DNA from: Eledone cirrhosa | Taxonomy: Eukaryota | Length of the DNA stretch: 64,000 nucleotides | Assembly: GCA_964016885.1 (NCBI GenBank) | Contig: OZ024743.1 | Span: 59,892,001-59,956,000 of the forward strand | Reading direction: 5' to 3' | Part shown: positions 1 through 61,213 of the stretch, piece after piece | Layout of the letters: the number at the start of each line of letters is the position of its first letter | Numbering within the stretch: the stretch's first letter is position 1 | The notes under the pieces: generated by a model | What the model was told of the DNA's origin: nothing | What the model saw: the letters and a program-made list of their open reading frames with translations, nothing else | The model's database searches: none | Position numbers and translations under genes: made by a program

Positions 1-1158
1 CCGCTTGGATCAGGAGCTCCAACCCAGATCCGGACCAGTTCCCCTGCTTTTCTTTTGGTATTTCGATTAGTTTGGTGTTGGCATCGATGCCGGCGAGGAC
101 GGCAGCCATTAGCCAGTGAATTTCGATGGCCGATGGAACGTGGGTGACCCTGATCTTTACGAGTCTCTGGTCACAATAGCTTGGGACGACTGTCACGTCA
201 TCGCTTATTAGTGGGGCCATGGAGTGCTCTCTGGCCTCCTGTGGTGTTCCAAAGAACACGTCCACGGTTCCATATTTCTGTCCACGTTCGATGTTGGATT
301 TTTTTGCCCACACATGACCAAAAGCTTTTTTGGATTTGGGACTTGGATGCCCGTTCCACTCGGCGCGATTTTATGTTAATCGTCCGATAAAACACGGTGC
401 ATAGGCGCCTATGCTCTATTTTATTATGTGGCGCCGGGGTGGGGGTGGGGGTGACCTTGTACCCATCTTTCTTTTCCATTCTCTTAGCTTCATCTAATTC
501 CTCCTGAGTTTCCCAGATTGTTTCGCATATTTTGGCTCCTTTGGCAACAAGGTGTTCTTATCCGCATTGTTGTTGTTGCTGTTGTTGTTATTGTTATTTT
601 TGTTATTGTTATTTTTAGTTTCAGTTGCGGTGGTAGTGGCGTCAGTGGTGTTCGGTGTGGCTGTGTCGATTTTGGGTGAATCCATTTCGATGTCACAAGA
701 TATTAATTTTTTTTTTCTTATGTTTCTGTTATCGCTGTGGTGATGGCGGGGGTGGCGGCTTCAACACCTGCAGTCATTGGTAATTGCGGGAAATAAATGT
801 CTGCATGAGACAAATTTAAATTATTGCTACTGCTTATATTTTTAGTGTTGGCAAACGTAGTAATATTTACAATGGTGGTGTTGGTGTGAGGTGTTAGTTT
901 GTGAGGAAGGCTCTCAGCTACTTGGTGTAGCTGTGAGTCGTCCATGATTTGTTCAAAGAAATGTTTTGTTTGATAATTATAAAAGTTTAAATTTTGGGCT
1001 CAAAGCCCCAATATTTTTGAGTGTCCTTTTCAGAAATCAATGTATGTGCACCTAGAAACAATTAACAACAAAATTCTTCCATAAATGGTAATTTTAAACA
1101 AATGAAAACATCAAACCTTTGCTGAGTTCACGATGATACGATTTCCTAGATAGGTCGG
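1..1158 (-). mobile_element. Tx1-clade non-LTR retrotransposon copy B (5' leader and frameshifted ORF1; continues left of the window)
   Basis: Colinear with 5952-7116. ORF pieces 718..945, 494..685 and 198..479 match the ORF1 N-terminus (ESLPHK.TPHT, HRRLCTV.YRTIN.KSRRVERAS) in different frames. The 5' end abuts (AAT)n at 1159. Confidence 0.9.
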
Positions 1159-1159
1159 C

Positions 1160-1200
<41 letters not shown>
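1159..1200. repeat. (AAT)14 tract separating the two Tx1 copies (tail/target site)
   Basis: Perfect AAT repeat between the 3' end of copy A and the 5' end of copy B. Confidence 0.95.
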
Positions 1201-1202
<2 letters not shown>

Positions 1203-1467
1203 TTTTCTTTATTAACCACAAGGGTTCACATAAAGTAGACATTAAGGACAGTACAGGACAATACAGGAGGGTACAAATGGGCATTTCTGCGTGTAAAAGA
1301 ACAGAGGTTGAAATAAAATGACAAAGAAAAAAAAAAAAAAAAAAAAAAAAAAAATTCCCCAATAGGGGGGAGACTTCCAAGGGACATTTGTGGAGAAAGC
1401 CCATTAAAAGACCACAGTGGCCCTGACCACCAGGGCAAGTGCCCTCTCCCAGTTTTCCACCTTTAAT

Positions 1468-4400
1468 TTACAGACACATACTCAGAGAAGGCCCATTCAT
1501 TCGGGCCATACTTGCTTCTCTCACCCATCTTTCAACAAAATGCTGGGAAGAGAGCACTTCCCTCTCTACCCTGATTTTCCTTTTCAAATGAAATTTGAAA
1601 AAGTTAATCAGGGCATCACCGAAGAGGTAAGTGCTCGTCTTCAGCCCTTTCAAACGTGTGCACCATACTATCTCTTTCGCCATGGCCACCAGACAGATAA
1701 AAACTGCCTGCCCTTCCAGGCTAAAGGAAGGGGGCGGGGCAATCCTCACGATGGACTCAGCTGATAGCCGGATCCGTCCTACACGTGACAGCAGGTGTTC
1801 GACATAAACCCACAAGTCAGCAATGCTCGGACACTGGACGAGTGCGTGCAGGACGGTTTCGTCGCCCTGCGCGCATCTCGGACAAGCCCGGCTGACGGCA
1901 CCTCCATGCCTGTAGAGTTTATCCCGAACTGGCAAAGCTCCTCGGTAGCACTGCCAGGCCAGGGATTTCTGGAAGTTGTCCATAGGCCCCGGCCCGAAAG
2001 TCCTTCCGAAGAGATTGGCTAGTTGATTTTCGTCGACGCCTAGAGTTTCTCCAAGTACGTCGTCGCTCTTCCTCTCCACTAATCCCCTATAGAACGCCAA
2101 GGTGGAGTTTCCACCGATCACATTGCCCGATTGGTCGAGGGCTGTGAGCGCCTGAAGACATTCCAGTCTCCAAGCGCTCCCTCTCGGTCTTCGCTTGACC
2201 CAGGACTGCAGCTCCGTCAAGGAGACGAGCTGGGGAAAAACGTGTCTTGCAAACGGCGACCACACCTGATCACCGTCGAGGAAGAGGTGGAGATATCGTA
2301 GCCTGAGCGCGGGTCTGCGCATCATCAGCCACGGCATGCCCAGCCCTCCACGTAGCGGGTGTTGACAGCAGATGGACCGCCTGACCATCGGAGCGCGTCC
2401 CTTCCACAAGAAGCGAAAGAGCAAACGCTCCAGCGCAGTCAGGCGGGGCTTAGGACAAGGTACGACGGTCAGGCGGTAGTAGATGACGGATGCGATGTAC
2501 GCATTCGCCACCTCCGCTCGACCTTTCAGGGATAGCTTCCTCTCGGCCCATTTCTGGGTGAGAGAAGCCACCCTGCTCGTCACCTCGTCCCAGTTTTTGT
2601 CTGTCTGGAGGTCTGGACCGAACCAGACCCCTAGCAATTTAACCGGTCCGTCCGTCCAGCGCCCGACGACGCTGTTGGACGGCATGGACCTGCCTCTCCA
2701 GGTGCCGAGCTGCAGACCCACTGACTTTTCCTGGTTGATCATTGCTCCTGTCACCGCTTCGTATTCTCTTAGTGTAGTGCCGATCGCCTCGATATGTTTG
2801 GCGTTCGACACCACTACGGTGACATCGTCGGTATATGCTGACACGGATCTTCCGCATCCTAGTTCGCGCGGGACCCCCCTCAACGTCTCCAGTTTGTGCA
2901 GTAATGGCTCGAGAGTCAATACGTACAATAGGGACGAGAGGGGACATCCTTGGCGGACCGAGCGCATGATGTTGAACGGTTCCGAAAGGTGACCGTTCAC
3001 TCTCACTACAGAGCAGATGTCGCTGTGCATGGCAGCGATCCAGCCTCTGAAGACGGGCGCAAAGCCAGCCGCCCTCAGGACTGCCGCTAGGTAACGATGG
3101 TCGACCCTATCGAAGGCTTTCGACTGATCTAAATTGATCAAAGACCCACCCGTGCCAGGTTCCCTAGCTACCCTCTCTACGATGTATCGCATGAGGTGGA
3201 GGTTGTCGTGGATAGATCTGTCGGGAATGGCGCATGTCTGTGCCTCTCCCACCAGACCACCAACGACAAGCGCCAACCTCTTTGCTAGCACCTTGGCCAA
3301 AATCTTGAACTCTGTGTTTAGCAGAGTTATGGGCCTAAAATTATCTATGTTATCCCCCTTGTTCGGATCCTTTCTCAGCAGCGCCACCGCTCCTCGGCTC
3401 ACAGAGCTGGGAATTCTCCCGTTCTGTTGCCAGTTGCAGTAGACGTCCGCCAAGAGGCCTCCGAACAAGTTTGGCATTTGTACGTAAAGTTCATAGGGCA
3501 GACCATCCAAACCAGGCGATTTACCCCTTGTGCAACTAGTCATTGCATCCCGTACTTCAGCGGTTGTTATCGGCTTTTCGCAACACTCCGCCTCAGTGGC
3601 CGAAAGCCGCGGCAGTCCGTCGAGGTAGACACTAAAGTCCATCCCTCGATCCGGCCCGCCACTGCCCCCGAACAGTTGAGCGAAGTGTCGCTGAAAAGCT
3701 TCACACATTTGCCCGGGATCGAGTAGCATGCGCCCGTCGTGGTCCACCAAAGACCGGATCGTGGCTTTGTTGCCACGACGCGCCTCCGCCACTCGGGCCC
3801 ATTGAACGGCTTTCGTCCCCTCGTGTCTGAGAGCACGCACCCTAGCTCTGACAACGCAGCCTTCGTGCTTTGCATTGAAGAATTGGTCAAGGGCCAATTT
3901 CGCCGCAAGTACGTCGGTCGCGATGCCTTTGCTAAGCGCCTCATCTAATTTTCTAACTAATTCTCCCTCTGCTCTATTTTTCTCTATTGCTAAAGTCTTA
4001 CTAAACCTAATGGACTCTATTCTAATTGCTCTTTTCAGAGCAAACCACCACTTGTTGTTGACAATGGCCCCCGTCAACGCCCGCTTAACTAGTTCGCTAA
4101 TCCGGTCTCTGTAGGCCTTGCGCGCTGGTAAGGACGCGTTTAGCTTCCAGTAGCCGGGTCCTCGTCTATGAAGCCTATCTAAGTCAAGCACACAGATCAC
4201 GAATTTGTGGTCCGTGTAGCTGACTATCTTGAATTGTGGACAGCCTATGCTAGACCTATCTATTTCCCTACAAAATACTCTATCTAGATATGATCTGGAT
4301 GACCCTATGCGATTTGTCCAAGTCCACATTGGTACATTCGGGAAATCCATTCGGTACCTGTCAGACAGTTCAAAACGTCTGAGCAGGTTGGTGAGACTCT

Positions 4401-4887
4401 TGCACCCTCCTTCCCTATCCACTAATCCCACACAATCCCAGCGTGCATCTAAGATCCCGTTCCAGTCGCCCACTAACACTAAAGAGCGGGACGTTCCAAG
4501 AAAGGTCTCCAGACGCCGGAAGAAATCAGGTCGCCCTGCTCCTGTCGGGGAATAGACGGCCACTAACCTGAAAGCTTGCCCGTCTCCGCTGGTCACGTCC
4601 AGCACCACCAACTTACCTTCTGGGTCCAGGAAGATGGCCCGTATGGCAAGATCCAAACCTCTCCGAAAAAGCACAGCAACTCCTCCCCCCGATCCCGGAC
4701 GGCTGGGAGATGCGTACACATCGTAGCCGCCGAAGATCGGTGCGAAAGCCTGTGCTTCGGAGATTCTGGTCTCGCTGATGGCCACTACATCTATGTTTAG
4801 TGACCTGAGGTCGTTGAGCAGGTGGCCCTGCTTCCATGACGACCCCAAGCCACGCGCATTTATGCTGCCTATTCTGAGTGAGGTCAT
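1468..4887 (-). CDS. Tx1/L1-type ORF2: APE endonuclease, reverse transcriptase and C-terminal zinc finger (1139 aa)
   Basis: APE motifs SINARG, ISET, AVYSP, VGDWN, YLDRVF, TDHK. GPGYWKLN linker typical of L1/Tx1. RT motifs KSPGLDG, FRPITLLN, DQSKAFD, RQGCPLS, YTDD. C-terminal CPRC...ETVLHALVQC. Confidence 0.95.
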   Translation of the reverse strand: MTSLRIGSINARGLGSSWKQGHLLNDLRSLNIDVVAISETRISEAQAFAPIFGGYDVYASPSRPGSGGGVAVLFRRGLDLAIRAIFLDPEGKLVVLDVTSGDGQAFRLVAVYSPTGAGRPDFFRRLETFLGTSRSLVLVGDWNGILDARWDCVGLVDREGGCKSLTNLLRRFELSDRYRMDFPNVPMWTWTNRIGSSRSYLDRVFCREIDRSSIGCPQFKIVSYTDHKFVICVLDLDRLHRRGPGYWKLNASLPARKAYRDRISELVKRALTGAIVNNKWWFALKRAIRIESIRFSKTLAIEKNRAEGELVRKLDEALSKGIATDVLAAKLALDQFFNAKHEGCVVRARVRALRHEGTKAVQWARVAEARRGNKATIRSLVDHDGRMLLDPGQMCEAFQRHFAQLFGGSGGPDRGMDFSVYLDGLPRLSATEAECCEKPITTAEVRDAMTSCTRGKSPGLDGLPYELYVQMPNLFGGLLADVYCNWQQNGRIPSSVSRGAVALLRKDPNKGDNIDNFRPITLLNTEFKILAKVLAKRLALVVGGLVGEAQTCAIPDRSIHDNLHLMRYIVERVAREPGTGGSLINLDQSKAFDRVDHRYLAAVLRAAGFAPVFRGWIAAMHSDICSVVRVNGHLSEPFNIMRSVRQGCPLSSLLYVLTLEPLLHKLETLRGVPRELGCGRSVSAYTDDVTVVVSNAKHIEAIGTTLREYEAVTGAMINQEKSVGLQLGTWRGRSMPSNSVVGRWTDGPVKLLGVWFGPDLQTDKNWDEVTSRVASLTQKWAERKLSLKGRAEVANAYIASVIYYRLTVVPCPKPRLTALERLLFRFLWKGRAPMVRRSICCQHPLRGGLGMPWLMMRRPALRLRYLHLFLDGDQVWSPFARHVFPQLVSLTELQSWVKRRPRGSAWRLECLQALTALDQSGNVIGGNSTLAFYRGLVERKSDDVLGETLGVDENQLANLFGRTFGPGPMDNFQKSLAWQCYRGALPVRDKLYRHGGAVSRACPRCAQGDETVLHALVQCPSIADLWVYVEHLLSRVGRIRLSAESIVRIAPPPSFSLEGQAVFICLVAMAKEIVWCTRLKGLKTSTYLFGDALINFFKFHLKRKIRVEREVLSSQHFVERWVREASMARMNGPSLSMCL

Positions 4888-4921
4888 GTTGAAAAGGAGT
4901 GGAAAAGATGGGAAAGACCAC

Positions 4922-6907
4922 TTACCTTACTTCTCGTAGGGGAAGGACGGCTTTTCCATCCTTTTCACTGCTTGTGGCCTCCTCAGGAAGGATGTCCTTA
5001 TAAATCCTCCTGGAGAGTGCTTGTCGGAAGTCTCCGATGTCTTTGGGGAATTTTTGTTTTAGTGTCATGTACGTTTTCTGTGTGATGCAAGTGATTTGTA
5101 TGTGTGGAGGTGGTGTGAATTTTGGGGTTGTTGTGTAGTCTTTTTCTGTGATGCTGGTGTTGTGTTGGATGTAGTGTAATAATTGCTTGTTGTTCAAATT
5201 TAATGCTGTGTAGTGTGTATCGTTTTGGTTGTTTTGTTTTGTTTGCGTTTTTTGTGGGTTTGTTTCTGTTTCGAATTTTGGAGACTTTTGTGGTGTAGGT
5301 GATGGTGGTGATGGAGTTAATGATGGTGATGGTGTTGGTGTTTGGGTTGATGGGGTTGGTGATGCTGGTGTGGATGGTGGCATATCTGTCCTAACTTTTT
5401 TGTTTCTTAGTTTATTTGTTTCCCTCTGTATTTTGTTTTTGGAGGGGGAAGGAAGAGAATTTTTTCTTTTTTGGTTTCTTCTTTTTTTTCCGGATATCGT
5501 TTCCCACTCCTCGTCGTCACAATCTGTCTCCAGTTGTGATAGGCCGGGGAGTGGAAAATCCTCCACAGCCGTTAGTTTTGGTTGTGGTGTGGTGGATGGT
5601 GTAGGCGCTGGTGCTAGTTCTGAAGCGTTGGGTGGTGGTGGTGTTGGTTTTGCTGGTGGTGGTAGTGGTGTTGGTTTTGCTACTGTTGCTGGGGTTGTTG
5701 CTGTTATAGTTGCTTCTGTTGTTGCTGCTACAGTTGTTGCTGGCATCTCTGCTACTGGTGGTGTTGATGGTTGTGTCACTGGGGTGGGTAGGAGAGGTGG
5801 CCTCAACCTTTTAGTCTGAGGGCAGAAATCCCTTAGGTGGGTTCCTTCACCACAAACGACACACCTAGGTCTTCTGCCCTCGACAATTACCGTGAGGTGG
5901 CTGCCGTCAGTGAGGTCTATTACCTCTGGGATCTCCTCAATGCTTTTTTGGTCCGCTTGGATCAGGAGCTCCATCCCAGATCCGGACCAGTTTTCCTGCT
6001 TTTCTTTTGCTATTGTTATTATTTTCGTGTTGGCCTCGATGCCGGCGATGACAGCCGCTATTAGCCAGGGAATTTCGATGGCCGGTGGAACGTGGGTCAC
6101 CCTGATCTTTACGAGTCTCTGGCCACAATAGCTTGGGACGAGTGTGAAGTCGTCACTTTTTAATGGGGCCATTGAGTGTTCTCTAGCCTCCTCTGGTGTT
6201 TCAAAGAACACATCCACGGTTCCATACTTTTGCCCACGTCTGATGTGGGTTTTTCTTGCCCACACATGTCCCAAAGCTTTTTGGATTTGGGACTCGGATG
6301 CCCGTTCCACTCGGCGCGATTTTACATTTATTGTTCTATACGACACGGTGCACAGGCGCCGATGCTCCATTTTATTAGGTGGGGGGGTGAGGCTGACCCT
6401 GTACCCATCTTTCTTTACCATTTGTTTGGCATTTTCTAAATCTTCTTGAGTTACCGTGAACGCTTCGAATTGTTTTGCTACGATGGCGAAACTGAGGGTC
6501 GGTTTTATAATGTCATTGTTGTTGTTGTTGCTATCGTTAATATTAATTTTATTTTCAGTTGTGGTGGTGGTGACGTCAGTCGTCTTTGGTGGGGAAGAGT
6601 CCATTTTGCTTGATTTCATTTCGACGTCACGAGTTAATTTATTTTTTTCTTCTTTTGTTTCTGTTGTCGCGGTGGTGGTGGTGGTGGTGGTTGTCGCGGT
6701 GGTGGTGGTGGTGGAGGGTTTAACACCTGCAGTCATTGGTAATGGCGGGAAATGAATGTCTGCCTGAGTAAAATTTAAAATATTGCTACTGCTTATATTT
6801 TTTTTTGTGTTGGCAAACGTGGTAACATTTACAATGGTGGTGTCGGTGTGAGGTGTTATTTTGTGAGGAAGGCTTTCAGCTGCTTCGTGCAGAGGGGAAT
6901 TAGCCAT
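4922..6907 (-). CDS. Tx1-type ORF1 (nucleic-acid-binding/gag-like, 661 aa)
   Basis: CX2CX4HX4C knuckle (CVVCGEGTHLRDFC), Pro/Thr-rich linker, and basic W-x4-KKRR motif. Ends 34 nt upstream of the ORF2 start. Confidence 0.9.
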   Translation of the reverse strand: MANSPLHEAAESLPHKITPHTDTTIVNVTTFANTKKNISSSNILNFTQADIHFPPLPMTAGVKPSTTTTTATTTTTTTTATTETKEEKNKLTRDVEMKSSKMDSSPPKTTDVTTTTTENKININDSNNNNNDIIKPTLSFAIVAKQFEAFTVTQEDLENAKQMVKKDGYRVSLTPPPNKMEHRRLCTVSYRTINVKSRRVERASESQIQKALGHVWARKTHIRRGQKYGTVDVFFETPEEAREHSMAPLKSDDFTLVPSYCGQRLVKIRVTHVPPAIEIPWLIAAVIAGIEANTKIITIAKEKQENWSGSGMELLIQADQKSIEEIPEVIDLTDGSHLTVIVEGRRPRCVVCGEGTHLRDFCPQTKRLRPPLLPTPVTQPSTPPVAEMPATTVAATTEATITATTPATVAKPTPLPPPAKPTPPPPNASELAPAPTPSTTPQPKLTAVEDFPLPGLSQLETDCDDEEWETISGKKRRNQKRKNSLPSPSKNKIQRETNKLRNKKVRTDMPPSTPASPTPSTQTPTPSPSLTPSPPSPTPQKSPKFETETNPQKTQTKQNNQNDTHYTALNLNNKQLLHYIQHNTSITEKDYTTTPKFTPPPHIQITCITQKTYMTLKQKFPKDIGDFRQALSRRIYKDILPEEATSSEKDGKAVLPLREVR

Positions 6908-7116
6908 TTTTTTTCAAAGAAATTTTTGGATAATAATAAAAGTTAAAATTTTGGGCACAAGGCCCCAGTCTTTTTGGGTGTCCTTTTCGGAAAACAATGT
7001 ATGTGTGCTTATAAACAGTTTACAATAAAATTTTCCATAAATGGCAATTTTTAAACAAACGGAAATAACAAACCTTTGCGGAGCTCACGATAATACGATT
7101 TCCTACGTAGGTCGCC

Positions 7117-7161
<45 letters not shown>
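7117..7161. repeat. (AAT)15 tract shared by the 5' ends of the Tx1 and R4/Dong elements
   Basis: Perfect AAT repeat between two divergently oriented elements. Confidence 0.95.
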
Positions 7162-10100
7162 CAAACACTACATTACAAAGAAACTTATGCTTATTCATTT
7201 TTGGGGTTTTTTCTGCCTGTTTGTTTGTTTGTGTTCGTCTACAGCGTGATAATGCCGCACAAAAGTCACGTGGAGTGACGAAACTACCGGAGACAAGTAA
7301 TTCACCGGTGGTTATGTAACCATACATTCGCCAATCCTCGATAAGAGTGTTTAAATGTCGAACCTAAGCAGTTCGAATAACGGTGAAATGGAGACTAGAA
7401 TGTCATGTGACAGACTCTCACCCAACAGGTGCTCCCTGGCTCAGCAGCAGGGACCTGGCTGTCAACCAAATACTGCTGGTGTCGGAGGAAGAAGAAGAAG
7501 GAAAGGGACCAGAACCAACTAGACGAAAGAATTGAATAGAACTGTTATGCAATGTTACCTGAAGAGTAACCCCAAGAAGAAAGGCTATAGGAAAAGGATG
7601 CATAACATCTGGAACGAGATTGGTCCATTTAAATTAGATGAACAAAAACTGGCCGGGCAGGCTCGGGTAATAAGAACTAATGGGTGGATAAGCGAGCTGG
7701 AACTGGAGGAACTGAGCAGAGAGATTAGCTTGGAGATGGAGGGTGGAGTATGCCAGGCAAACGAGCCAGTGGGAAATGAAGGTGAAGAGGTCGAGAGAAC
7801 GGAGGAACCACCCGAAACAGACAATGATCTGAATGCTGAGATAAATAATACCTGGAACAGAGATACGGCCACTGAGGAGATGAATGCTGACGGGCTAGGA
7901 CAAGATTTGGTAGATATCCTAAACTTAGTGGTAGATGAATTGAACAATGATAGTGGGAGACCTATTAACCTAAGATTTGTAGACAGGAACAAGTTAAAAG
8001 AAACAACAGCTAAGGTAAACAAAGTCATCCCATACCTTGAGGCGAGCAGCCTTCACCAGTGCAACAATATCCTCAAAGCAACAGCAAATACGGTGAGGAA
8101 ACTACTTGGTATAAAAGCGAGAGGAAACAACAGACAAGAAAGAGCAGAGCATTGGTGGAAGAAACGACTGAGTGGTCAAATCAGGGAAATGAGAAATGAC
8201 ATTGGAAAGCTTGAGTCCCTACTGAATGGGACACTAAACAACATAGACACTAAAAATAGACTGGAAATAAAGTACAAAACTAGGAGGAAAAAGCTAAATA
8301 TTATCATAGAGGAACTGAAGCAATGCATTGTAGCAAAGAGTGCAAAAATCAGGCGAAACGAGAACAGAGTCAGTCAGTATAGACAGAATCGTATGTTCGA
8401 CAACAGCCAGAAGATGCTGTTTGAACAGCTTGAAGGGAAAATAAGAGGCAACGACTTGATCCCTGAGGTGGAACAAACTAAAACATTCTGGAGAGGAATA
8501 TGGGAGCAGGATGTTAAACATAATGACCAGGCAGTGTGGATTGAGACAGTACAGAAGGAGATCAGTGAACAGGCACGCCAACAAACTGATTTGAGTATCA
8601 CAGTTGAAACTCTTAAGGGGCAGGCCAAAAAACTAACCAACTGGAAATCACCTAGCCCAGATGGTGTGCAGGGGTATTGGATTAAAAACATAACATCCCT
8701 CCACCCGAAACTGACAACCATGTTCAATGACTGCTTGATGGCAGGTGAGGTACCAGAGTGGTTGACAAAAGGTACCACAGTTCTGATAATGAAAGACCGA
8801 ATCAAGGGTAATGATGTTACCAACTATAGACCTATCACATGTTTGTCCGTAATGTGGAAACTGTTGACAAGCATTATGTCTGAGGAAATCTACCATCACC
8901 TCCACACAAACAACTTGTTACCGGACGAACAGAAAGGATGCCGAAAGAAGTCACGTGGTACAAAGGACAAGTTACTTATTGATAAGATGGTAATGAGGAA
9001 TTGCAAGAGGAGACACACTGGTCATGCCATGGGATGGATAGACTACAAAAAGGCATTTGACATGGTGCCTCATTCTTGGATCACCAACAGCCTGGAGATC
9101 TTCAAGGTGGCAGATAACATCAGGCAGTTGTTGGGCAAAAGTATGAAGTCCTGGGAAACAGAGTTAACATCAACTGGAGAATCCTTGGGAAGCGTGAAGA
9201 TCAAGAGTGGTATCTTCCAGGGAGATTGTCTGTCCCCTCTGTTGTTTGTCCTTGCCCTGATGCACTGACCAGTGTACTGCGAAAAGTGAGAGCAGGATAC
9301 AGGTTGGGAAAGGGAGGCCTTACCATCAATCACCTCCTCTTCATGGACGATCTTAAGCTCTTCGGGAAGAGTGAGAAGGAGTTGGATTTGCTTGTTGACA
9401 ATGTCCGTATTTTCAGCAATGATATATGTATGCAATTTGGTATTAGTAAGTGTGGAGTCATTGAGATAAGGAGGGGTAAGTTGAGCAGAAATAACGGAAT
9501 CCAGATACCAACAGGTGAGATGATTAAAGAAATTGACTCTGAAGAAGGATACAAGTATTTGGGCATTCTGGAGGCTGATGACATCAAGAACCAAAAAAAT
9601 GAAGGAATTGATAAGAACTGAATACTTTCGGAGAGTAAGGAGCGTATTAAAGTCACATCTGAACAGTAGGAATGCCATAGTGCAGTAAATTCCCGAGCTG
9701 TGTCTATTATTAGGTACAGTGCGGGAATTCTGAGATGGTATGTTGCTGAACAAAAAGAAATGGATAGGAAGACTAGGAAGCTATTGACTATCTACAACAT
9801 GTTCCACAAGAGGCATGATGTCGATAGACGCTACTTAAGGAGATCTGAAGGTGGAAGAGGTCTTATCAGCATAGAGGACTGTGTTCAGAGTGAGAAAAAT
9901 AACCTACACAAATACGTGACTGATAGTAAGGAGCCAATGCTCAGAACTGTACTGAAGGAGGGGACAATAGGCCAGGGGATGTCCAAGGAGGAAATAACAT
10001 CAAGGTGAAAGAGCAGCCTTCAGGAAAAATCCCTTCGTAGTACCTTCTTTGAGAAAACTGAACTTAGAGATCCACAGACATGGAACTGGTTGAAAAGAGG

Positions 10101-10684
10101 AGACCTTAAAGACGCTGGAGACATGATGTGATGGGCAGGGTGATCAACTGGCACCTATGCAAAGTAAACAATTTACCACATTCTGAGAAATGGTATGAGC
10201 ATAAGCTAGAGGCGGTGATAGAAAACGATCAGGTGAAGGTGCTGTGGGATTTTAGGATACATACGGACAAGAAACTGGAACACAATAGACCTGACCTGGT
10301 GGTTGTGGACAAAGAAAAAAGAACGTGCCTGATTGTGGATGTGGCCTGCCCATTCCACACGAGAGTGCAAGAGAAGGAGAGGGAGAAAATTAACCGATAC
10401 CAGGACTTAAAGAGGGAGGTAAAAAGGATTTGGAACTGCCATGAAGTCAAAGTGATCCCGATTGTCATAGGCGCACTAGGGACTATCTCAAAAAGTTTCC
10501 AGGGATGGTTAAAGAAAATTGGCCCCTTCACGCTTTTTGGAACGCTTCAAAAGGCATGCTTGCTGGGAACAGCAAAACCCTCCGATACGTACTAAATATC
10601 TGAGGCTGCAGGTAGTGGCTTGATATTCATTTCAACAAACTTTCCAGTTAACTAACATCAATGACTGAGACTCAAAGAGTAATA
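7162..10684 (+). mobile_element. R4/Dong-clade non-LTR retrotransposon, near full-length, decayed
   Basis: Single-ORF layout with an R4-type N-terminus (VMQCY, WWKKRL), RT, and a C-terminal PD..D/E restriction-like endonuclease. Ends in ...GAGTAATA. Confidence 0.85.
7355..10595 (+). pseudogene. R4/Dong RT-RLE polyprotein, disrupted
   Basis: ATG at 7355 is in frame with ORF 7532..9268 across a TAG at 7520. RT motifs WKSPSPDG, YRPITCL, DYKKAFD, GIFQGD, and LFMDD after a frameshift near 9265. Further breaks near 9600, 9686 and 10006. RLE motif NRPDLVVVD...IVDVACP...EKINRY. Confidence 0.88.
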
Positions 10685-16236: not shown

Positions 16237-17475
16237 TGGATCATCCAGCGATTTTGGGTGCAGTTACATCCAATCTTGCTAAACCTCTAGCCACAATATT
16301 CAACCTATCATTTGCTACCGGAGTTATTCCTGCCGACTCGAATGTAGCTACAATTTGCCCTATCTTTAAATAAGGCGACAGAGAAGACCCGGGGAACGAC
16401 AGACCCGTGAGCCTCACCTCAATTGTCTGTAAGGACTTGGAATCTCTAATCAAGCGGGAAATGATGGCTCATCTTGCGTCTTTTACTGCCATCTCACCAT
16501 CTCAGCACGGTTTCATCCCGAAACGTTCCTGTATCACAAACCTACTCGTCATAGAAGAATGGGTGACGAGGATAGTGGACGATGGAGATGCGGCCGATAT
16601 TATCTTTCTCGACTTCGCCAAAGCCTTTAACTCTGTCAACCACCGCCTGCTCCTGTATAAGCTCAGCAACTACGGTCTCCATGACTCGATTATAAAGTGG
16701 ATTGGATCATTTCTTGAGGGTCGTACTTGCAGACTTCGGATCAATGGCAGTCTGTCATCGGGGGTGGGTGTAGGCAGTGGCGTTCCCCAGGGCTCTGTTT
16801 TGGGCCCAATTCTCTTCCTTCTATACATCAACGACATGCCGGGCGTGATTGGTGGAAACGTGCTCCTATTTGCAGATGATGTGAAAATGGTAGCCCGAAG
16901 GCTACCATTTGCCAAACTCACTCCAGAAATGTTCAGACCTCTCTATGTCGCCCTCGTGAGACCGCACCTAGAATATGACATCCAAGCATCAAACCCATAT
17001 CTCATCCGGGATATCCATCACTTGGAGAGATTCAACGACTAGCGACTCGGATGGTACTTCATGAGCTGCCCTACGAAAGCCGGCTGCAGAAGTTGAACCT
17101 CTTATTCTTAAAGCGTCGACGGCTAAGAGGTGATCTCATTTTGGCTTACAATCTCTTCAATGGCCATTACGATCTCCCTCAATATCTCCTATTCGCTCCG
17201 GCACTTGAGAGGGGTCTACGTGGATATGACAAAAAGCTATTTCACCGCCGCTTTCGCATAAACAGATGGAAAGCTGCTTTCTCGATCCGCATCTCTGGAT
17301 CCTGGAATCGGTTTCCAGAAGAGGAGTCAGCGCGCCAACCCCGCAACAATTCAAGGCGAAATTGGACCGGTGTTGGAACACTGTGTTTCCGACTGTGTAA
17401 ATGTTGCCCCTCTCCCCTCCTTACATAGCATCTGAAGCATCTATGTTTTCTGCCAAATATATTGTATTGAATTGA
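16237..17475 (+). mobile_element. CR1-clade LINE, 5'-truncated with an internal deletion
   Basis: RPVSLTSIVCK, QHGF, DFAKAF, SGVPQGSVLGP, FADD, LVRPHLEY, RRRLRGDLI. Contains in-frame stops and an (ATTGA)-type tail. Confidence 0.88.
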
Positions 17476-17946
17476 AAAAATCTAACTGATCTATATGTAC
17501 TTCGTCACAAGTAGTTCGGCTTAAATATCGCAATTATTTTTATTTATTTTCTCATTGCCCTCTAATTTCATTCTGTTTTGTTTTGATTACGTTATCGTTC
17601 ATATCTACGCTCTGTACTATGTTTTCGTCTCGGTTGTCGTCTTTCAAAATACTCTAGGTCATTAGAAAATGATCAAAATCTGAAACGCAATTATAGGCGA
17701 CGGAGAGAGTCATGTTAACTTTTTAAATATCTTAATACACTCTCGTCACCTATTCGTACGTCGATTACGTATATCATCGTTTTATTGGATCGTTTGCCTT
17801 TTCGAAGATTATCGTCCTACCCCCTCATTTTCTCTCCCTATCCTACATGTGATACACATTTATATGTTTATATATATATCCATATATATATATATACATA
17901 TATTTACATATACACATATACATGTAATTATATATATATACACGCC

Positions 17947-20439: not shown

Positions 20440-20637
20440 GGCGTTGGATTGGCAGTATCGGTAGAGGGTCGGTCGCCATGCTTTGCAGCATAGAGTTACA
20501 GCCCTTTACGGTCTGAGTTCAAATCGCGTCATGGTTAACTTTGCCTTTCATCCTCACGAGGTCGATAAAATAAAGTAACAGTAATGCACTGAAGTAATTA
20601 CTGGACTTGTGCCAAAAATAAAAGCAATTATTATTAT
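20440..20637 (+). mobile_element. tRNA-derived SINE, Meta-like domain family
   Basis: TGGCAGTATCGG A-box-like, GAGTTCAAATC B-box, TTTGCCTTTCATCC...GGTCGATAAAATAAAGTA core, and (ATT)n tail. Confidence 0.85.
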
Positions 20638-26035: not shown

Positions 26036-26099
<64 letters not shown>

Positions 26100-26100
<1 letters not shown>

Positions 26101-27508
26101 TAATTTAATATATCTACTAACATAAGCGCACAGATGTACGCTAATGCCAGCAAATACACAGGTTATGTCATAGTACCTAGGTGGTTCAATGCAGGAGGAT
26201 GCAGAACAATAATATAAAAGACGTAAAATAAGAAAATTTTAAAAAGAAATTTAAAAAAAATTAACTTACTTATATTTTCACTCCAACTAATTAGTTTCTG
26301 CAATGGGATAAAGACAGTTACGTAATGAACTGTTGAGTATTTCGTTGCGTCATCAGGGCGGTCATTCTCAGCCAAGTCTCCAGACAATGCGCGGACACTG
26401 GGGACTCATATAAAAATAATAATAATTCGGTAAATGGAACAGCTATCGAGGACTGGATTCCATGTACTGAAAATTCTCACTGCCACTGGTCATATGGCCG
26501 ATTCTAAAGAATCAATCACGTGACACAGAGGCTAGTCAGTAGAATGGGATGGTAAGATGACAGACGCCTACTAACACCCCCCAAAAAAATTTTTTAGAAG
26601 TGGTTTTGGCAGGTTTGCTCGACAAATCAGTGATTTGGAGATAAATATAGATAATTTAATATATCTACTAACATAAGCGCACAGATGTACGCTAATGCCA
26701 GCAAATACACAGGTTATGTCATAGTACCTAGGTGGTTCAATGCAGGAGGATGCAGAACAATAATATAAAAGACGTAAAATAAGAAAATTAAAAAAAAAAA
26801 TAAATAAAAAATTAACTTACTTAAATGTTCACTCCAACTAATTAGTTTCTGCAATGGGATAAAGACAGTTACGTAATGAACTGTTGAGAATTTCATTGCG
26901 TCATCGGGGAGGTCATTCTCAGCCAAGTCTCCAGGCAATGCGCGGACACTGGGGACTCATATAAAAATAATAATAATTCGGTAAATGGAACAGCTATCGA
27001 GGACTGGATTCCAGGTACTATGACATAACCTGTGTATTTGCTGGCATTAGCGTACATCTGTGCGCTTATGTTAGTATCTATATTTATCTCCAAATCACTG
27101 ATTTGTCGAGCAAACCTGCCAAAACCACTTCTAAAAAAATTTTTGTGGGGTGTTAGTAGGCGTCTGTCATCTTACCATCCCATTCCTACTGACTAGCCTC
27201 TGTGTTACGTGATTGATTCTTTAGAATCGGCCATATGACCAGTGGCAGTGAGAATTTTCAGTACCTGGAATCCAGTCCTCGATAGCTGTTCCATTTACCG
27301 AATTATTATTATTTTTATATGAGTCCCCAGTGTCCGCGCATTGCCTGGAGACTTGGCTGAGAATGACCTCCCTGATGACGCAATGAAATTCTCAACAGTT
27401 CATTACGTAACTGTCTTTATCCCATTGCAGAAACTAATTAGTTGGAGTGAAAATTTAAGGAAGCAAGTTAATTTTTTTTTATTTTTTTTTTTAGTTTCTT
27501 ATTTTACG

Positions 27509-39019: not shown

Positions 39020-40210
39020 AGTTCAGAAACAAAGTCAATGAATGGAAATCCCCTGGCATTGATAACGTCCCAAACCTCTGGTTATCTCCTCTAACTGCTA
39101 CTCATTATAGTTAGGTGGATTGGCAGTATCGGTAGAGGGTCGGACGCCATGCTTTCCAGCATAGTTACGTCCCTTTACGATCTGAGTTCAAATCCCGCCG
39201 AGGTTGACTTTGCCTTTCATCCTTACGGGGTCGATAAAATAAAAGTACCAGTAATGCACTGGGTAATTACTGGCCTTGTGCCTAAAGTAGAAACAATTAT
39301 AATTAGGTAAAATGTTGTAAGGAAATTATGTACAATCCTGTGAAAACCTCTGATTGTTTTGCACACGGTATAATATAAATCTTGCCACATCATATCAGAT
39401 TTTCACCCCAACCTTGACTGTGATAAACTAGAAATTTATGGATGAAAATCATCTTTTCTCTATTCAGCAGAAATATTGTTGTCGTGGGTCTTGCGGGTGC
39501 AAAGACCAACTTCACATTAACTGTATGATTGTGGAAACAGTCAAAGATGGTCTGGAAATCTGAATACTGCTTGGATTGAGTAACAGAAAGCATTAGATAG
39601 TGTTCTCCAATCATGGAGTTTGAAAACTTTGGATGTTCTCAAGATTTCCTCTGTAATACAACATATATATCACTGTACACAGTGATGGAACTAGAAATTC
39701 CAGCAGCATCATTACTGACTGGCATTTTTTGAGGTGAACAGTTTTCTATGTACTTTGCATTACACTCACGCCGCTGTCTTTAACACCCTGCAAAATAAAT
39801 TATGGAAACTGTATAAACAGCCAAACCATGAATCATCCGTTTTATATGATGACTCGAAGTTGTATGAAAAACTGATAATGAATTGGAAGGACTGCTGAAA
39901 ATAGTTAAGATTTTCAGCACTGACGCATGAATGGATTTTAAATTTGAAAACAGCGCAAAAGCAACACCCGAGAAAGTCAGAATGACCAGCGCAAACTCAA
40001 TAGAAATAGATGTGAATACAGTAAATAGGGAACTAGAAAAGGAACAAGCCTTCGGATATCTAAGGATCAATGAAGGCCAAGGTATCATCATGCTAGCATG
40101 AAAGAGAGAATCAGGATGGAATGCTACCGGGAATACGTATTGTCTAGAAAACTGAGCTTAACTCAAGAAATAAATTATCTGCCATAAATGAGCTTGCAAT
40201 CACGGATGTC
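39020..40210 (+). mobile_element. Old R4/Dong-like RT relic, interrupted by a SINE and other sequence
   Basis: WKSPGIDNVPNLWL near 39045, NH.FY.DD.KLY-like near 39830, IVKIFSTD at 39901, and ELNSRNKLSAINELA near 40155. Confidence 0.6.
39113..39304 (+). mobile_element. tRNA-derived SINE, Meta-like domain family
   Basis: Same head, core and TGGCCTTGTGCCTAAAGTAGAAACAATTAT tail as the other copies. Confidence 0.88.
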
Positions 40211-41050: not shown

Positions 41051-41454
41051 ACAGAACAGTCTATTATTTAAACGAACATCCAGCACAGAATCAAATAGAT
41101 CAGGCACAATAGAAAAATCCATTATTGATCTCTGTCCCTGATTACCTTTGTGCCCTTGTTCTAAATGTCCAAATTGAACATTAGGATCGTTTAAAAATGT
41201 GTGCATTTCATTATATTTGATAGTATTTTTGTCTACTAGTGTTATATTTGTTGTTGCTGTGAAGGTGATGTCACTGTTGAATATTTTAGTTGCGAGACAT
41301 TCATTTCATACTTTTCCCGTGTTGTGTTGTTGTTGTTGAAAAATAAACAGCCAGTAATACATTGGGATCGATTTAATCGACTTTCCCCTCCCTCAAAATT
41401 GCTGGGATTATGCCTATAGTAGAAAGCAATATTACTGTTATGATCATAACAATA

Positions 41455-41657
41455 GGGCGGTGGATTGGCAGTATCGGTAGAGGGTCGGACGCCATGCTTT
41501 CCATCATAGAGTTACAACCCTTTATTGTCTGAGTTCAAATCCCGCCGAGGTTAACTTTGCCTTTCATCCTTACGGGGTCGATAAAATAAAGTACCAGTAA
41601 TACACTGCAATAATTGCTGGCCTTGTGCCAAAAGTAGAAAAAATTATTGTTATTATC
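41455..41657 (+). mobile_element. tRNA-derived SINE, Meta-like domain family
   Basis: Full head, core and tail. A 3'-only fragment of the same family lies at ~41340-41435. Confidence 0.88.
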
Positions 41658-44600
41658 ATAACAATAATAAATAAGATGACGATGACGACGACGAAGATAG
41701 TGATGGTAAATGTGACAACAATAATACAAGGCCACAGCAACAACAAGGTAAAGATAGGATAAAAATAAAAATATAACGAAAGGTCCTGTATTTTTTCGCG
41801 TAATAAACATATGCATATATCAAAGAAAACTGTTTATCTAGACACATTACAATGAAACAACAATGTCAATAACTTCTTGTTTTATCATATGAATGTGAAT
41901 ATATCGACTATAAACATCTTCTGTAAGTGTAAATTCTTCTACTACTAATGTATGAATGAAAAGTCGAGTTATGTAAACACATAAAACTGATATAGAATAC
42001 ATCTGATTTGACATTATGTATACCTATACAAATACGAAAATAACCACATTCGACAGTAAACTGTCGTTTATATCTGTAGGTTGAATCATATACAAGCAAA
42101 CTTTGGAGTACAACCATCTACACTAAAAATAAAATTATGCGTATATTAAGGGAACTAGTGGTCATCAAACAAATAGTTGGCGATGAAAAAATATTATAGC
42201 AAATAAAACTATTTTAAAATATCGCTCGCTTAATATACATCAATATTATCTCTAATATCTGACTTAAGATGACAGAAGACTATATAACATGAATACCTCA
42301 AGGGTAGGAAACATTAGATGAGAATTTATGAAAATATAAGTAGATATATTCTAGCTCGAATTCTGTTAATTACTTTACTTACAAAAATGGAGATCTGAAA
42401 GTTAATCCAATATATTTGAAATCAGGAAGAAACACTATACGCGAAAACCCGAATACTCCGAGGTTATATTTGAATTAGATTCAACTTTTGATTAAACAGT
42501 TTAGAAACCAATAAACATCGATAACGTTTCACATACCAGAAAAAGCCTTAATCTATAACGTATGAAAATTTCAACAATTCCTTCGACATTGAAAGGAATC
42601 CTAATAAGTCTGAAGAAGCTATAATTGTTTTTTTAAGTTTTGTCAGAGGAAACTGTAGTGCACCTGTACGCCTCGAAGACTGGTAGCAACAAAGTACGAG
42701 TTTATCCAAGTATACTCTGCTAAAGACACCATGTCGTGGTCTTAAAATTTCAGCTCAGTGCGCAAAGTCTTCGAATAATTACCGTAATACAATTTGTCCT
42801 AAACTTTAAATATGTTCTTAATCTAATTGTCGAATGCAAAACGCTGAAAGGCAATTTTGACTTAAGTAGAATTTGAACACTGACTACAGACTGCTGGAAA
42901 CATTTCACCCAATATTTCTTCTTTTGCTTTAACAACTCTGCAGATTTACCGCCTACAAATTATTGAGGCTAGACAGACAGTAGTAACAACCTCCGAATAA
43001 ATAATATTGAGCAAATTATGCCTCTACATAAAAAAACTTCAAGAGGCGTTCCTCTTCTTAGAAACCAATGTCAGTTACACATAGCATATAACTGTTACAG
43101 ATAGCATATAACTGTTGGATTGAAATAATGAACCAATTTAGTTTCTAAGTTTTTCTAAGAAGATAGAGAAGAATATCTTGATAGTGTATGTACATGTTTC
43201 CAGAAGGTACAAATAGTGAGGAAAACAACATATAAGACGGGAAAGAGCAATGCTGACATTTATAGGCGAAATAAAGTAAAATATTTGAATAATAGATATT
43301 TCGGTAATATAACCTTTCAGACATAAAAGTAGTGAGAGATGCGTTACGTATTACGTGATTGTAGATTTCTAAATAAGTTTGTATTTAATCATAATCAATC
43401 TTTTCAAAGAGACTTCTAGAAACTTTCTACAGATGATTGTATGAAGTAGACATAGTGATAATTATGATCAGTTTTGATATTACAAATAGAGAGATATTGG
43501 AAAGAGATTGAGGATAGCTGTATTTCAAACCAAATTCGACTCATTTTAAATTTTCGTGTAGTTATAGATTATAAATAGAAACATGAACCAAGCACTGTGA
43601 ATCATAAATGATAGTCTGATAAGCGAAGATCTGGAAATATCGTATCTCTAAGAACTCAAACTTAACCAAACATGAAAATAATAAATTGATCATCTATCAC
43701 TGTAATTTGACATCCATACACTCCATAATATCTACTAACCATTATAAAGTCTAGAACAATCAAACACGTATATGCAGATCAAAGAAACATATATTGTTAT
43801 AATGAGTCAATTAGCATTAACAAGTATAACAGAATATCTATGACTAAGTATGAAATAATCGACTGTAGAGCAGATTTTAATTGCCTCCCGTAATTTTACA
43901 TCTTTGGAGCTCTGGAATGAATAGAACGTAATTGAAGAAGAGGTACTATGCCATTATAATTAACATTATAAGTAACAAGTACATAGTTAGAGGAAAATGC
44001 GCAATTCTAGAGAGGAATCTTGTTATACCAATACCATGTATTAAAATATGCTCCATCTAAGCTCAAAAGGTAACAACAAACACCAAGGAGGCATATAGTG
44101 CATTAATCCACCGCTTTGACAGCAATAATTTGCCCTCACACTTAGAAGCATATGATTATGGTATCTTTATGCAAAAGTGTCTGAACGGTTTAGAACATGT
44201 ATGCCCATCATGCTACATAGATTGTGCCTATTTAAGTATCATTCGTTTTAAAAATATCATGACAGTTAAATACTGTACTGGAATATACTTAAAACTTCAT
44301 CTGAAACTGCATTTATCTAAAACAGATTTCAGAATGTGGCAAAGGCAATATTCTGAAATAGATACACATAATTGTCCGTGATGTTATAACTAGATAATGA
44401 TCAGTGAAATAGGAGCAATCACTTAACCACAACTTTTCTGTCATAATTTTCGTGGGCAAAAATTAATAATTTAAATATATTAGAAATAAAAGAAACATCT
44501 TAAAGATTATATTATATTCCATCACATTTACTCTGAGATCGTCCCAGTCAGGTGGAAGTAACCATTGTGAGTCTGGGCTACGTTAACAGTTATATGGTTG

Positions 44601-46645: not shown

Positions 46646-47166
46646 AGGTTTTTAATGTCTATCTCTCCTACCCCATCTTGTCTGTGTGTGTTGTGTGTTG
46701 TCTGCTTAGTTTGCGCATGCTTTATATCTGGGTGAGTTTGGGTGTTCATATTTATTTATTTATGTGTTTATTTACCTGTAACTCGTTGGTTGTATGTTCT
46801 ATCTGTGTGTGTCTGAATTGTTTTCGTAGTTTAGTTTTTGTGTGTGTCTGTATGTCTTCATTTTGTCCTTAATTACTAGTTGTGATAAAACAATGTGCCT
46901 CGTCCAGAGTTTACACCTACACTATCTACAACAAATTAAGAAGACTCAACTAACCAAAGGACTAGCTGATATACGCAAACGAACACTCATTCTAAACATT
47001 AAAAAAAAAATTACATAGAATTAAGCAAATAAAAAAATTTGTTTTGAAAGATAATATATATATGATATATATTAATTAATATATATATATATATAACATT
47101 TTCTATACCTTTCATTTAAAAGAACCGAAAAGTGAAGAAATAATGTGTCTGCCAAATTAAGATAAT

Positions 47167-47350
47167 TGTTTCTACGTTAAGCACAAGGCCAGCAATTAAC
47201 CAGTGTATTACTAGTACTTTATTTTATCGACCACGTAAGGATGAAAGACAAAGTCAACCTCGGCGCGATTTGAACTCAGATCGTAAAGGGACGCAACTAT
47301 GCTGGAAAGCATGGCGTCCGACACACCACCGATACTGCCAATCCACCGCC
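47167..47350 (-). mobile_element. tRNA-derived SINE, Meta-like family, with 10-bp TSD
   Basis: TTAAGATAAT at 47157-47166 and 47351-47360. Confidence 0.88.
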
Positions 47351-47965
47351 TTAAGATAATGGCAGCCAACATATATTATAATGGAAGAGATACCAGACGT
47401 GTAATTTTCCCGATAAGATACTAGGGAAATTAGAAAAGTTTAACCCTTTCGTCAGCATTTTCCTAATGATACACACAATGCCTAATATCTCCAAATTATT
47501 TGTAAAATAATGAATTGTTTACAGTGATATAGTTACATAATTTATTTTCTCATTGTTAAGTTGCTGTTTAGAAATATAATTTACCATATTTTTTTTATAT
47601 AGAAATGTGTTGCAATCTTTTTAGATAAAAATTAACTTTTTAAAATAAACAATCCTTTACTCTAAATTATGGGCTGTTTTCAGGAGTTTATGTATCAATG
47701 GTTTTGTAGAGTAGCATATATACATTTTTAAAGCAATCGACTTACACATAAATATCTCTGATAGCTAAAAATATAACTTTCTTATCCACTTCTTTGTAGT
47801 CAAGATGTTCTGTAAACAATATATTACTATAGAAAATCCTCTCAACGAGTGCCAATCCTAAACCCCGATGGCAACACGCCATCTCAAACTTCGCATTCTC
47901 TTCTTCGGCCCCAGTAACAGAAGAACAATGTCTTCCCTAGCTTCATGTCTATGAATAATTAATAA

Positions 47966-48142
47966 TTGTTTCTACTTTAGGCACAAGGCCAGCAATATTC
48001 CAGTGTATTACTGGTACTTTATTTTATCGACCCCGTAAGAAGAAAGGCAAAGTTAACCTCGGCGGGATTTGAACTCAAACCATAAAGGGCCGTAACTCTT
48101 TCCTGCAAAGCATGGCCTCCGACCCTCTACCGATACTGCCAA
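47966..48142 (-). mobile_element. tRNA-derived SINE, Meta-like family, with 15-bp TSD
   Basis: ATGAATAATTAATAA at 47951-47965 and 48143-48157. Confidence 0.88.
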
Positions 48143-58775: not shown

Positions 58776-60210
58776 TTATAAGAATCAAAGAACTGTTCAA
58801 AACATTTTTATGCTTACAACTGTTTCCTCCAAACCGAGGTTTGGATACCTCGGAGCAATTTTTTATTGAATGAACACTTATATGACCTCCTTTTCACCCA
58901 AGAGACATACAGATACATATGCAAATATTGTGGGTCAACATTCATTACAGCATTTAGAGTGGCAGTACACACTTAGAGATTACATTCATATTAAAAGATA
59001 CAATCAAAAATACAGGTTAAAATACAACATGAAAATAAGCGGTTATATAGTGCAAAGTTTATATGTGTGGCAAACACGTGCGTCTTGTTTATATAGTGTG
59101 GCAGAGAGGTACGTGTAGTAGAAGCACTTAAGCAGGTAATCAAGAGTGTTAGGTTGGTTGATCTGGTGACGAATTATTTATATGATTGTTATAGTCTGTG
59201 TGTGGAGAAATAATATAAGTATTAAAAATAGTGTAAGCATTAAAAATATTGGAAATGCGTAGCGAAGCGATGATATGGACTTCATGCACTTCGACATTTT
59301 CATAGTCTGGGTAGCGTATTTTTCAGATTATATGCCCCTCACATAATCCACGACTATTCGATATTGGGCGTTTGACAATCCAGTTAGAGAATCGTAGTCT
59401 GATGTTCTTTAGTTCAATACAGGAGGATGTTACGTTTCGAGAATCGACATCGAAATACTACCCGGAAGTGTGGTGTGTCTAAGGGGAGTTTAATGCATGA
59501 GGGGAGGTAACTCCGTGGTTTCTATTACTAACTATTAAAACGTGTCTCAAAATAGACCCTAACTTATAACGTTATGCGCAATTTCTAAAATATTTCTAAA
59601 ATTTAAAGTGTTCTAACTATAAAATAGTCTATTAAGTTCTGCTGAAGATGTTCTTATTATTATGGTGATTAACCCCAATCGTAGAGTGCCACAAATGAAT
59701 ATTATACACGACGAGCGAGGATTCTAAATGAATGATCTCTGAGGTTGCAGTCTACTCAAAGGACCAGGCGCGGTGATTGCAGAATCACTTCAACACACAA
59801 TGATCTCTGGTAAGTTCTGGGTCATCGCTTGCTACATTGGATGTCGAAAGATAATCATCACCAGGGCCGACCAGAGGTCAATCCACAGTCCTCATGACTC
59901 CAATTTTACCATCAAATCATCCATATATGTACAACCCATACGCCACTTGCAATACATTCATTCACTGCACTCAGCGTACCGGTCATACTGCTCATCAGCG
60001 TTACTAGATCAATTGGTTTTTCATTTGTCCAACGATGGTACTTCCTCCGCACAGCACCAACAAGACAATCAATTCAATGCTTAAATTAACTATAGAGTGG
60101 TGTAGTGCTGTTCAAGCGAGTGGATGTTGTCACACCTAAAGTAGAGGTACAAATGGGTATTCCCCCTGTGAAGGGTTCTAGAGGGATGTCGCTGTTTGTG
60201 TTATATTAGA

Positions 60211-61130: not shown

Positions 61131-61213
61131 GTGTCTGGTGTGTTGTTTCTTCCTAAGGTACTACGGTAGTTTCCGTGGTAATGGTTACTTCCGGTGGCAC
61201 GCTCCGCTTTGGT

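Follow-up and report, generated by a model that had tools for sequence, protein, structure and literature searches.

The window, a 64,000-nucleotide stretch of the Eledone cirrhosa genome, holds at 1202..7116 (minus strand) a full-length non-LTR retrotransposon of the L1 group (Tx1-type) with two open ORFs. It belongs to a young family, whose genomic 5' ends are 100% alike after rounding in 40 of 40 cases among the matches listed. ORF1 (4922..6907, minus strand) encodes 661 aa; a C-x2-C-x4-H-x4-C knuckle can be read in its sequence, and a Pfam search with it gave no match. ORF2 (1468..4887, minus strand; 1139 aa) carries an AP endonuclease, a reverse transcriptase and a zf-RVT domain according to a domain search, and its best solved relative is human L1 ORF2p (E 8.5e-52). 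The N-terminal AP endonuclease, the reverse transcriptase, the C-terminal zinc motif and the nearness to L1 are features of the L1 group and the Tx1 clade. A separate ORF1 with a CCHC knuckle is a feature of the L1 group and the Tx1 clade, and the window element has such an ORF1. Furthermore, insertion is sequence-specific and accompanied by target duplication (see below). The label "Tx1" is applied provisionally, on the layout of ORF2, the CCHC-bearing ORF1 and specific insertion with duplication; protein searches with the window element returned none of the named Tx1 references (Tx1L, Kibi, Koshi, Keno) among their matches.

Read in its own direction, the element ends with a 3' terminal hairpin, AACC-CTTGT-GGTT (1214..1226, minus strand, reading 1226-1214), and a 12-nt spacer, AATAAAGAAAAC (1202..1213, minus strand), which contains a conserved GAAA and closes with the last element base at 1202. 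An (ATT)14 target microsatellite (1160..1201, minus strand) then separates it from the 5' part of the next tandem Tx1 copy (1..1159, minus strand), which runs on into locus L062. At its 5' end lies an (ATT)15 target microsatellite (7117..7161, minus strand), so that (ATT)n flanks the element on both sides; this second run is common to Tx1 and a broken R4/Dong-type LINE of opposite orientation (7162..10680, plus strand), which is not the partner of the SINE described below. The 5' UTR of Tx1 contains another hairpin, GGGC-CTTGT-GCCC (6953..6965, minus strand), resembling that of the SINE. The names R4/Dong, CR1 and RTE for LINEs in this account are ones we presume from protein layout, not from a tree.

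Elsewhere in the window, a broken CR1-type element ending in (ATTGA)n occupies 16269-17480 (plus strand), and a 300-nt unit is found in direct and inverted copies, 94% alike, at 26087-27489. Within 58952-64000, open frames (60211-62740, minus strand; 508 aa) without a Pfam match lie between long inverted repeats, one pair of 386 nt (98%) and one of 272 nt (95%); this unit is possibly a DNA transposon.

The ATT repeat is the insertion target of Tx1

The arrangement in the window recurs throughout the genome. A query from the 5' end of Tx1 that held a single base of the ATT run returned 30 loci (one being the window's own and two resembling a duplicated segment), and in all 30 a stretch of (ATT)n, 18-66 nt long, lies before the full-length 5' end; 18 of these ends sit directly behind another Tx1 end. 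At the other terminus, (ATT)n comes next in all of the 30 best 3' ends, retrieved with a query that included 12 nt of the ATT run. The terminal hairpin is intact in 29 of these 30, which answers the concern that the stem-loop might not be conserved among Tx1 copies, and in at least nine the (ATT)n is followed by the antisense end of an R4-type element.

A boundary-based search for target duplications at the best-match loci met flanks that are mostly microsatellites or other elements. Tx1 ends without a perfect ATT run behind them gave 543 pattern matches, and the first 30 of the 543 were examined; 11 had no 5' end in the locus and 2 were a tandem duplicate, which left 17 usable. Among these 17 truncated copies, which had been selected for ATTA on the 3' side, six have duplications of 13-18 bp that start with ATTAT at the 5' boundary, one has a 19-bp duplication inside a microsatellite, and ten gave no clean duplication, several of the boundaries having been called inside coding sequence.

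The initial annotation had taken the repeat for a (UUA)n tail shared by Tx1 and the SINE, and had likened it to the terminal RNA repeat shared by UnaL2 and its SINE. The first reading fails and the second is not supported: the ATT/TTA repeat is insertion target DNA rather than a terminal tail common to the two elements, because (ATT)n lies on both sides of Tx1 and the supposed tail of the SINE recurs directly upstream of both SINE copies on which the claim was based. At one further locus (L020, minus strand, 3081), a Tx1 copy sits where two microsatellites join: (ATT)n precedes it, and ATT followed by (CTT)n comes behind it.

A SINE inserted at ATTAT sites

A very abundant SINE has several copies in the window. 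A copy of the short type (41455..41642, plus strand; hairpin 41618-41630) was inserted behind the end of an older SINE and is flanked by a 24-bp target duplication (41431-41454 / 41643-41666, 22 of 24 alike). A second (39117..39295, plus strand; hairpin 39271-39283) has a 13-bp duplication (39104-39116 / 39296-39308, 12 of 13 alike). Three more, with approximate ends, are found at 47162..47352 (minus strand) and 47961..48142 (minus strand), with duplications of 10 and 16 bp that start with ATTAT, and at 20445..20630 (plus strand). Box-like motifs are visible in the SINE head, where Pol III A and B boxes were looked for, and neither ARAGORN nor Rfam gave a match. The SINE has no poly(A) and no AATAAA.

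The genome contains at least 150,743 copies with the exact tail, and the total is about 480,000 as extrapolated from 156 matches in a 970-kb sample (97 stretches of 10 kb at round coordinates). Near-identical young copies are among them, and both Tx1 and the SINE have young and older copies. The sample held 107 copies with a tail, 106 of them with both flanks. Duplications of at least 9 bp flank 57 of these 106 random copies, compared with 7-15 in five shuffled pairings. At the 51 sites with a duplication of at least 10 bp starting at the element end, the median length is 15 bp and the upstream duplicate reads A44 T46 T50 A49 T46 (counts of 51), with T or C before it in 42 of 51. Of the 106 copies, 75 have ATTA in the 25 nt of 5' flank next to the element, where the background is 12.5%. 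The SINE therefore ends at GAAACA and the ATTAT behind it is host DNA, the start of the target-site duplication, since the duplications begin with ATTAT at the element end. The duplications of truncated Tx1 copies begin in the same way and are of similar length. Three or more ATT units follow the SINE end in only 20 of 106 copies, and in only 15 of the 51 sites with duplications; around young Tx1 copies the (ATT)n runs are long.

The SINE had been called Meta-like, a label that is not supported: by eye, its central domain bears no likeness to BivaMeta-SINE1 or BivaMD-SINE1 as given in the available part of the supplement to PMC4824008. MetaSINEs are defined by a 66-bp Meta domain directly behind the tRNA head. 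Other SINEs, at 22 metagenome loci, contain the central domain of the present SINE and have different downstream parts, none with such a hairpin. The domain is nearly identical across several unrelated SINE families of host DNA in metagenomes, with other heads and tails (L309-L330).

The terminal hairpin of Tx1 and the SINE

The letters and coordinates that the initial annotation gave for the Tx1 and SINE ends are right. Tx1 ends with AACC-CTTGT-GGTT, 12 nt and (ATT)n, and the SINE with TGGC-CTTGT-GCCW, 12 nt and ATTAT. The proposed equality of loop and spacer length is borne out: both match in register, with 12 nt in each element and GAAA equally far from the loop, and the likeness is above chance when the comparison is anchored at the 3' end. 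In that comparison four natural SINE copies (two of them from L036 and L087) were scored against five Tx1 family ends, giving p <= 0.044 in 20 of 20 cases (z 1.9-5.7), and against six other repeat ends, giving p >= 0.086 in 24 of 24. The match is short (about 14-15 of 20 nt), and an unanchored local alignment of the SINE tail with the last 60 nt of the window Tx1 is not significant (p 0.10 and 0.26). TATC-targeting Tx1 families (see below) match the SINE end slightly better than the window family does. A blind, fuzzy scan of the 970 kb for the SINE-tail motif gave 121 matches (111 SINEs, 6 SINE fragments and 4 Tx1 ends) and no ends besides those of the SINE and Tx1.

The stem varies among Tx1 families around a conserved frame. 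In 79 distinct Tx1 ends the loop is C-N-N-G-T, followed by AATAAA and GAAA, and the stems include AACC/GGTT (27), GGCC/GGCT (11), AGCC/GGCC (10), TGCC/GGCA and others (also GGCC/GGCY). The covariation expected of a paired stem is present: across nine ends 33 of 36 cells are paired, three of four pairs are changed on both sides, and 0 of 500 shuffles score as high, with the qualification that the nine ends were hand-picked and the structure was derived from those same ends. A metagenome scan for Tx1 relatives found none, and covariation is therefore confined to the one species. On the SINE side, the claim that pairing is kept holds for three pairs only: at the outer position, 64 of 123 copies have T-A and 50 have T.T. 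The SINE stem is thus 3 bp long. The copy with its hairpin at 39271 has the T.T pair, and its predicted minimum-energy fold lacks the hairpin. Among 180 SINE tails chosen by the central domain (from 210 matches, 30 of them without a tail), the frequent subfamily variants lie in the spacer and the outer pair, and changes in the hairpin and GAAA are mostly of the decay type. No Tx1 end with the G-C second pair of the SINE was found; the four matches are all SINEs.

The 5' UTR hairpin of the window Tx1 has the same loop as the SINE hairpin and matches it letter for letter over 11 nt; in other Tx1 families its stem is kept and its loop varies. This hairpin, 45-60 nt before the ORF1 start, is kept as a stem in every Tx1 family examined, and the neighbouring copy in the window has it in the 989-1001 region.

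Tandem arrays and mixed loci

Tx1 and the SINE have the same orientation in the arrays that they share. At locus L041 a SINE with a 13-bp duplication lies between two Tx1 copies (contigs of four runs contain both elements and skip the junction), and at L356 a truncated Tx1 and a SINE stand in tandem within one ATT run. In a single chimera (L022:1960-2150 / L116), a Tx1 3' UTR passes at the hairpin into the final 25 nt of the SINE, which can be explained by a template switch or by a homology-guided 5' junction. These mixed loci fit a shared machinery.

SINEs are often arranged in head-to-tail arrays with only the duplicated target between them (L033, L042, L095, L099, L174). The R4/Dong-type element and Tx1 settle in the same ATT/AAT microsatellites, one on each strand, and each is found inserted in the flanks of the other, as in the window (7162-10680) and in mixed arrays at L001, L009, L010, L013, L014, L017, L019, L026 and L027; some R4 5' junctions fall inside Tx1 sequence.

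The Tx1 elements of the sample fall into an (ATT)n group and a (TATC)n group, whose end motif is the same. The (TATC)n group often consists of short tandem 3' fragments of about 400-500 bp (L070, L095, L137, L158, L173, L179, L182, L183). The SINE end is followed by TATTATTA in 32,093 matches (some counted twice) and by TATCTATC in 108, most of the listed ones still starting with ATTAT; these counts make the ATT group of Tx1 the candidate partner. The TATC-targeting lineage does not appear to move the SINE despite having the same hairpin. Because the young window family is stricter in its use of long ATT runs, the SINE may depend on an older Tx1 relative, or its RNA may carry a shorter AUU read-through.

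A model for SINE mobilization

The best account of these observations is that the SINE is copied by the ORF2 protein of an ATT-targeting Tx1 lineage, which would likely recognise the common terminal motif (a 3-4 bp stem, a C-N-N-G-U loop, an A-rich spacer and GAAA); we place the probability of this reading at roughly 0.6. Tx1 likely supplies the copying enzyme because the two elements have in common the hairpin with GAAA, the ATTAT insertion sites and the size of the duplication. The strongest evidence is the common target sequence together with the duplication length. That Tx1 is the partner LINE is likely, and the window family or a relative of it, as the initial annotation proposed, is the best-supported candidate. 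That its enzyme actually reads the terminal hairpin seems probable, with less assurance; stringent recognition is something we infer from conservation and covariation.

According to this model, the endonuclease would nick the bottom strand at ATAAT/R (target Y|ATTAT), and ORF2 would grip the RNA at the hairpin and GAAA, some 12 nt before the RNA end. Read-through of the previous target site would leave a few AUU bases that could then pair with the nicked strand and prime reverse transcription, and second-strand cleavage about 15 bp away would produce the duplication. Each insertion would recreate C|ATTAT behind itself, and so tandem Tx1-Tx1, SINE-SINE and mixed arrays would follow. A broader proposal, to which we give somewhat less than even weight, is that an animal L1-group enzyme has kept stringent recognition, drives the dominant SINE and chooses its targets in part by RNA guidance. 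Read-through bases would pair with the next target, and sister lineages with one hairpin could thereby sort onto (ATT)n or (TATC)n.

Alternative explanations

Other LINEs were surveyed in about 1 Mb (0.03%) of the 3.0-Gb genome. Reverse transcriptase fragments in the sample and the window belong to RTE (15), Tx1 (13), R4-type, CR1 and a few minor groups. An abundant CR1 family with a 3' hairpin of its own deserves attention as a possible mover of the SINE: it is young, has many intact 945-aa frames and ends in ...TTC(ATT)n, and SINE partners usually belong to CR1 or L2 (PMC3747384, Table 1, as far as the accessible text goes). R4/Dong could be proposed on the ground that it has its microsatellite in common with Tx1. 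The CR1 family has duplications in only 2 of 30 truncated copies, ATTA in the 5' flank of 6 of 30 and thus no preference for it, an anchored end score of z <= 1.5 and a different loop; R4 ends in (AAT)n on the opposite strand. These duplication, flank and end-score data largely refute a CR1 or R4 partner, which we regard as very improbable. Two RTE families with (GAT)n or (ATC)n tails were also rejected, as were an RTE/BovB-like family, two CR1 families (one CR1 in the survey ends in (ATTGA)n) and an unclassified (AAT)n-tailed repeat. By anchored end score each of the five Tx1 families tested stands out and none of the six other repeats does, and no better 3' match to the SINE was found in the RTE, CR1 or R4 ends sampled. 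The RTE/BovB-like family, which has a long microsatellite-rich 3' UTR, itself takes Tx1 and SINE insertions (L351-L358).

A rare or extinct LINE outside the sample, with a closer end match and a similar target, would explain why no Tx1 has the exact stem of the SINE; the survey was small, and a Pfam search for reverse transcriptases gave only one CR1 family among the 30 loci examined. This too is improbable, if a little less so than CR1 or R4. All of the motif matches in the 970 kb are SINE or Tx1, the near-identical young SINE copies call for a recently active partner, and the LINE groups found are those recently active in Octopus vulgaris, except Hero and R2, in the portion of PMC13282606 available. 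The more serious challenge accepts Tx1 as the mover and holds that mobilization is relaxed: only the endonuclease preference and the pairing of AUU with the target would matter, and the hairpin would be a relic of origin or serve another role, such as RNA stability or 3' processing (the Tx1 spacer holds AATAAA). The weakness of the 3-bp SINE stem, the shortness of the match and the TATC lineage, which has the hairpin and not the SINE, speak in its favour, as do crocodilian SINEU elements, moved by Tx1 without a common 3' sequence according to the accessible part of PMC4494074. We nevertheless consider it unlikely: the hairpin and GAAA persist in divergent Tx1 families and in SINE subfamilies although the bases next to them vary, the SINE lacks AATAAA, and CR1 copies that end in (ATT)n without this hairpin seldom have the Tx1 signature. 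A variant compatible with a Tx1 partner would derive the SINE hairpin from the 5' UTR hairpin instead of the 3' end. Searched across the whole element, the SINE tail does find its best local match in the hairpin at 6953-6965 (11 of 11 plus flanks), with p 0.017 for the long SINE type; yet the short type gives p 0.20, a stretch of CR1 coding sequence reaches p 0.02 when tested alike, and reports of LINE 5' UTR pieces in SINEs concern RTE and Vingi only in the part of PMC5786205 at hand. Since the 5' UTR loop also varies among Tx1 families, and GAAA and the distance to the end fit only the Tx1 3' end, we find this origin rather doubtful, more so than relaxed mobilization.

Relation to known LINE/SINE pairs

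UnaL2 and UnaSINE belong to the L2 clade system, in which the two elements have a long identical tail and the terminal repeat belongs to the element. The copying of the Eledone SINE by Tx1 would resemble that eel pair, listed as a LINE/SINE pair in PMC3747384, in the common 3' stem-loop near a terminal repeat; it differs in that the LINE is of the L1 group, the motif is short and the repeat is target DNA on both sides. Of what marks a stringent pair, the elements have a common 3' end (about 20 nt, significant only when anchored), a compensatory stem-loop (3-4 bp, in a hand-picked set) and the insertion signature; a terminal repeat carried by the element itself was not found, since the repeat on both sides is target. 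We therefore regard the two as a probable SINE/LINE pair of a known sort with an uncommon partner, an animal L1-group element that targets microsatellites and has a minimal 3' hairpin.

Crocodilian Tx1-Mar LINEs were inferred to move SINEU from a common target preference, with tandem insertions (PMC4494074), much as a Tx1-group LINE and its partner are linked here by target preference and tandem insertion. SINEU has snRNA heads and poly(A) tails, and the available text of that paper gives no LINE matching the 3' half of SINEU-1; the SINE described here is putatively of the tRNA type, has the Tx1 terminal hairpin and lacks poly(A). The L1-clade pairs of monocots (LINE1-1_ZM with ZmSINE2/3) and Chlamydomonas (L1-1_CR with SINEX-3) likewise have a common 3' hairpin with a variable, compensating stem and a conserved loop and flank. 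In those pairs the homology is about 50-80 nt and no microsatellite target is reported in the accessible parts of PMC3472496 and PMC3747384, whereas the present pair is from an animal, with about 20 nt of homology and a sequence-specific target. Endonuclease-bearing LINEs in simple repeats are familiar from microsatellite-targeting Tx1 elements (Kibi, TC; Koshi, TTC; crocodilian, TTCC/TTTC) and from Dong (TAA), which uses the same repeat as Tx1 here from the other strand; (ATT)n and (TATC)n are not among the Tx1 targets named in the portions of PMC3812793 and PMC4494074 consulted.

The putative tRNA-type head and the recurring central domain of the present SINE have their like in the octopus OR1/OR2 CORE-SINEs and in MetaSINEs, and the available text of PMC4824008, PMC4758252 and PMC5804259 gives no partner LINE for OR1/OR2. 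By eye, the central domain of our SINE does not resemble BivaMeta-SINE1. The main octopus SINEs are tRNA-Core and tRNA-Deu according to PMC8967140 (in part), and the SINE partners named in the accessible part of PMC11481361 are CR1, CR1-Zenon, L2 and Nimb, with no mention of Tx1. The literature searched contained no paper that pairs an octopus or mollusc SINE with Tx1; Repbase or Dfam entries may already note the pairing.

SINEs with L1-clade tails account for only 3 of 58 pairs in the part of PMC3747384 available, all of them from plants or algae, and the same text does not settle whether L1 had stringent 3' recognition from its origin. If Tx1 copies the Eledone SINE as proposed, it would be a rare animal case in which an L1-type enzyme chooses its RNA by structure and not by a poly(A) tail. 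An animal Tx1/SINE pair whose hairpin is 13 nt long, whose young ORFs are intact and whose stem varies in nature would offer a small and direct test. The proposal would also identify what drives a SINE of at least 150,743 exact-tail copies. The repeat make-up suggests an octopod host, and in that case Tx1 would explain the expansion of octopus SINEs for which PMC8967140 and PMC13282606, in the parts available, give no partner.
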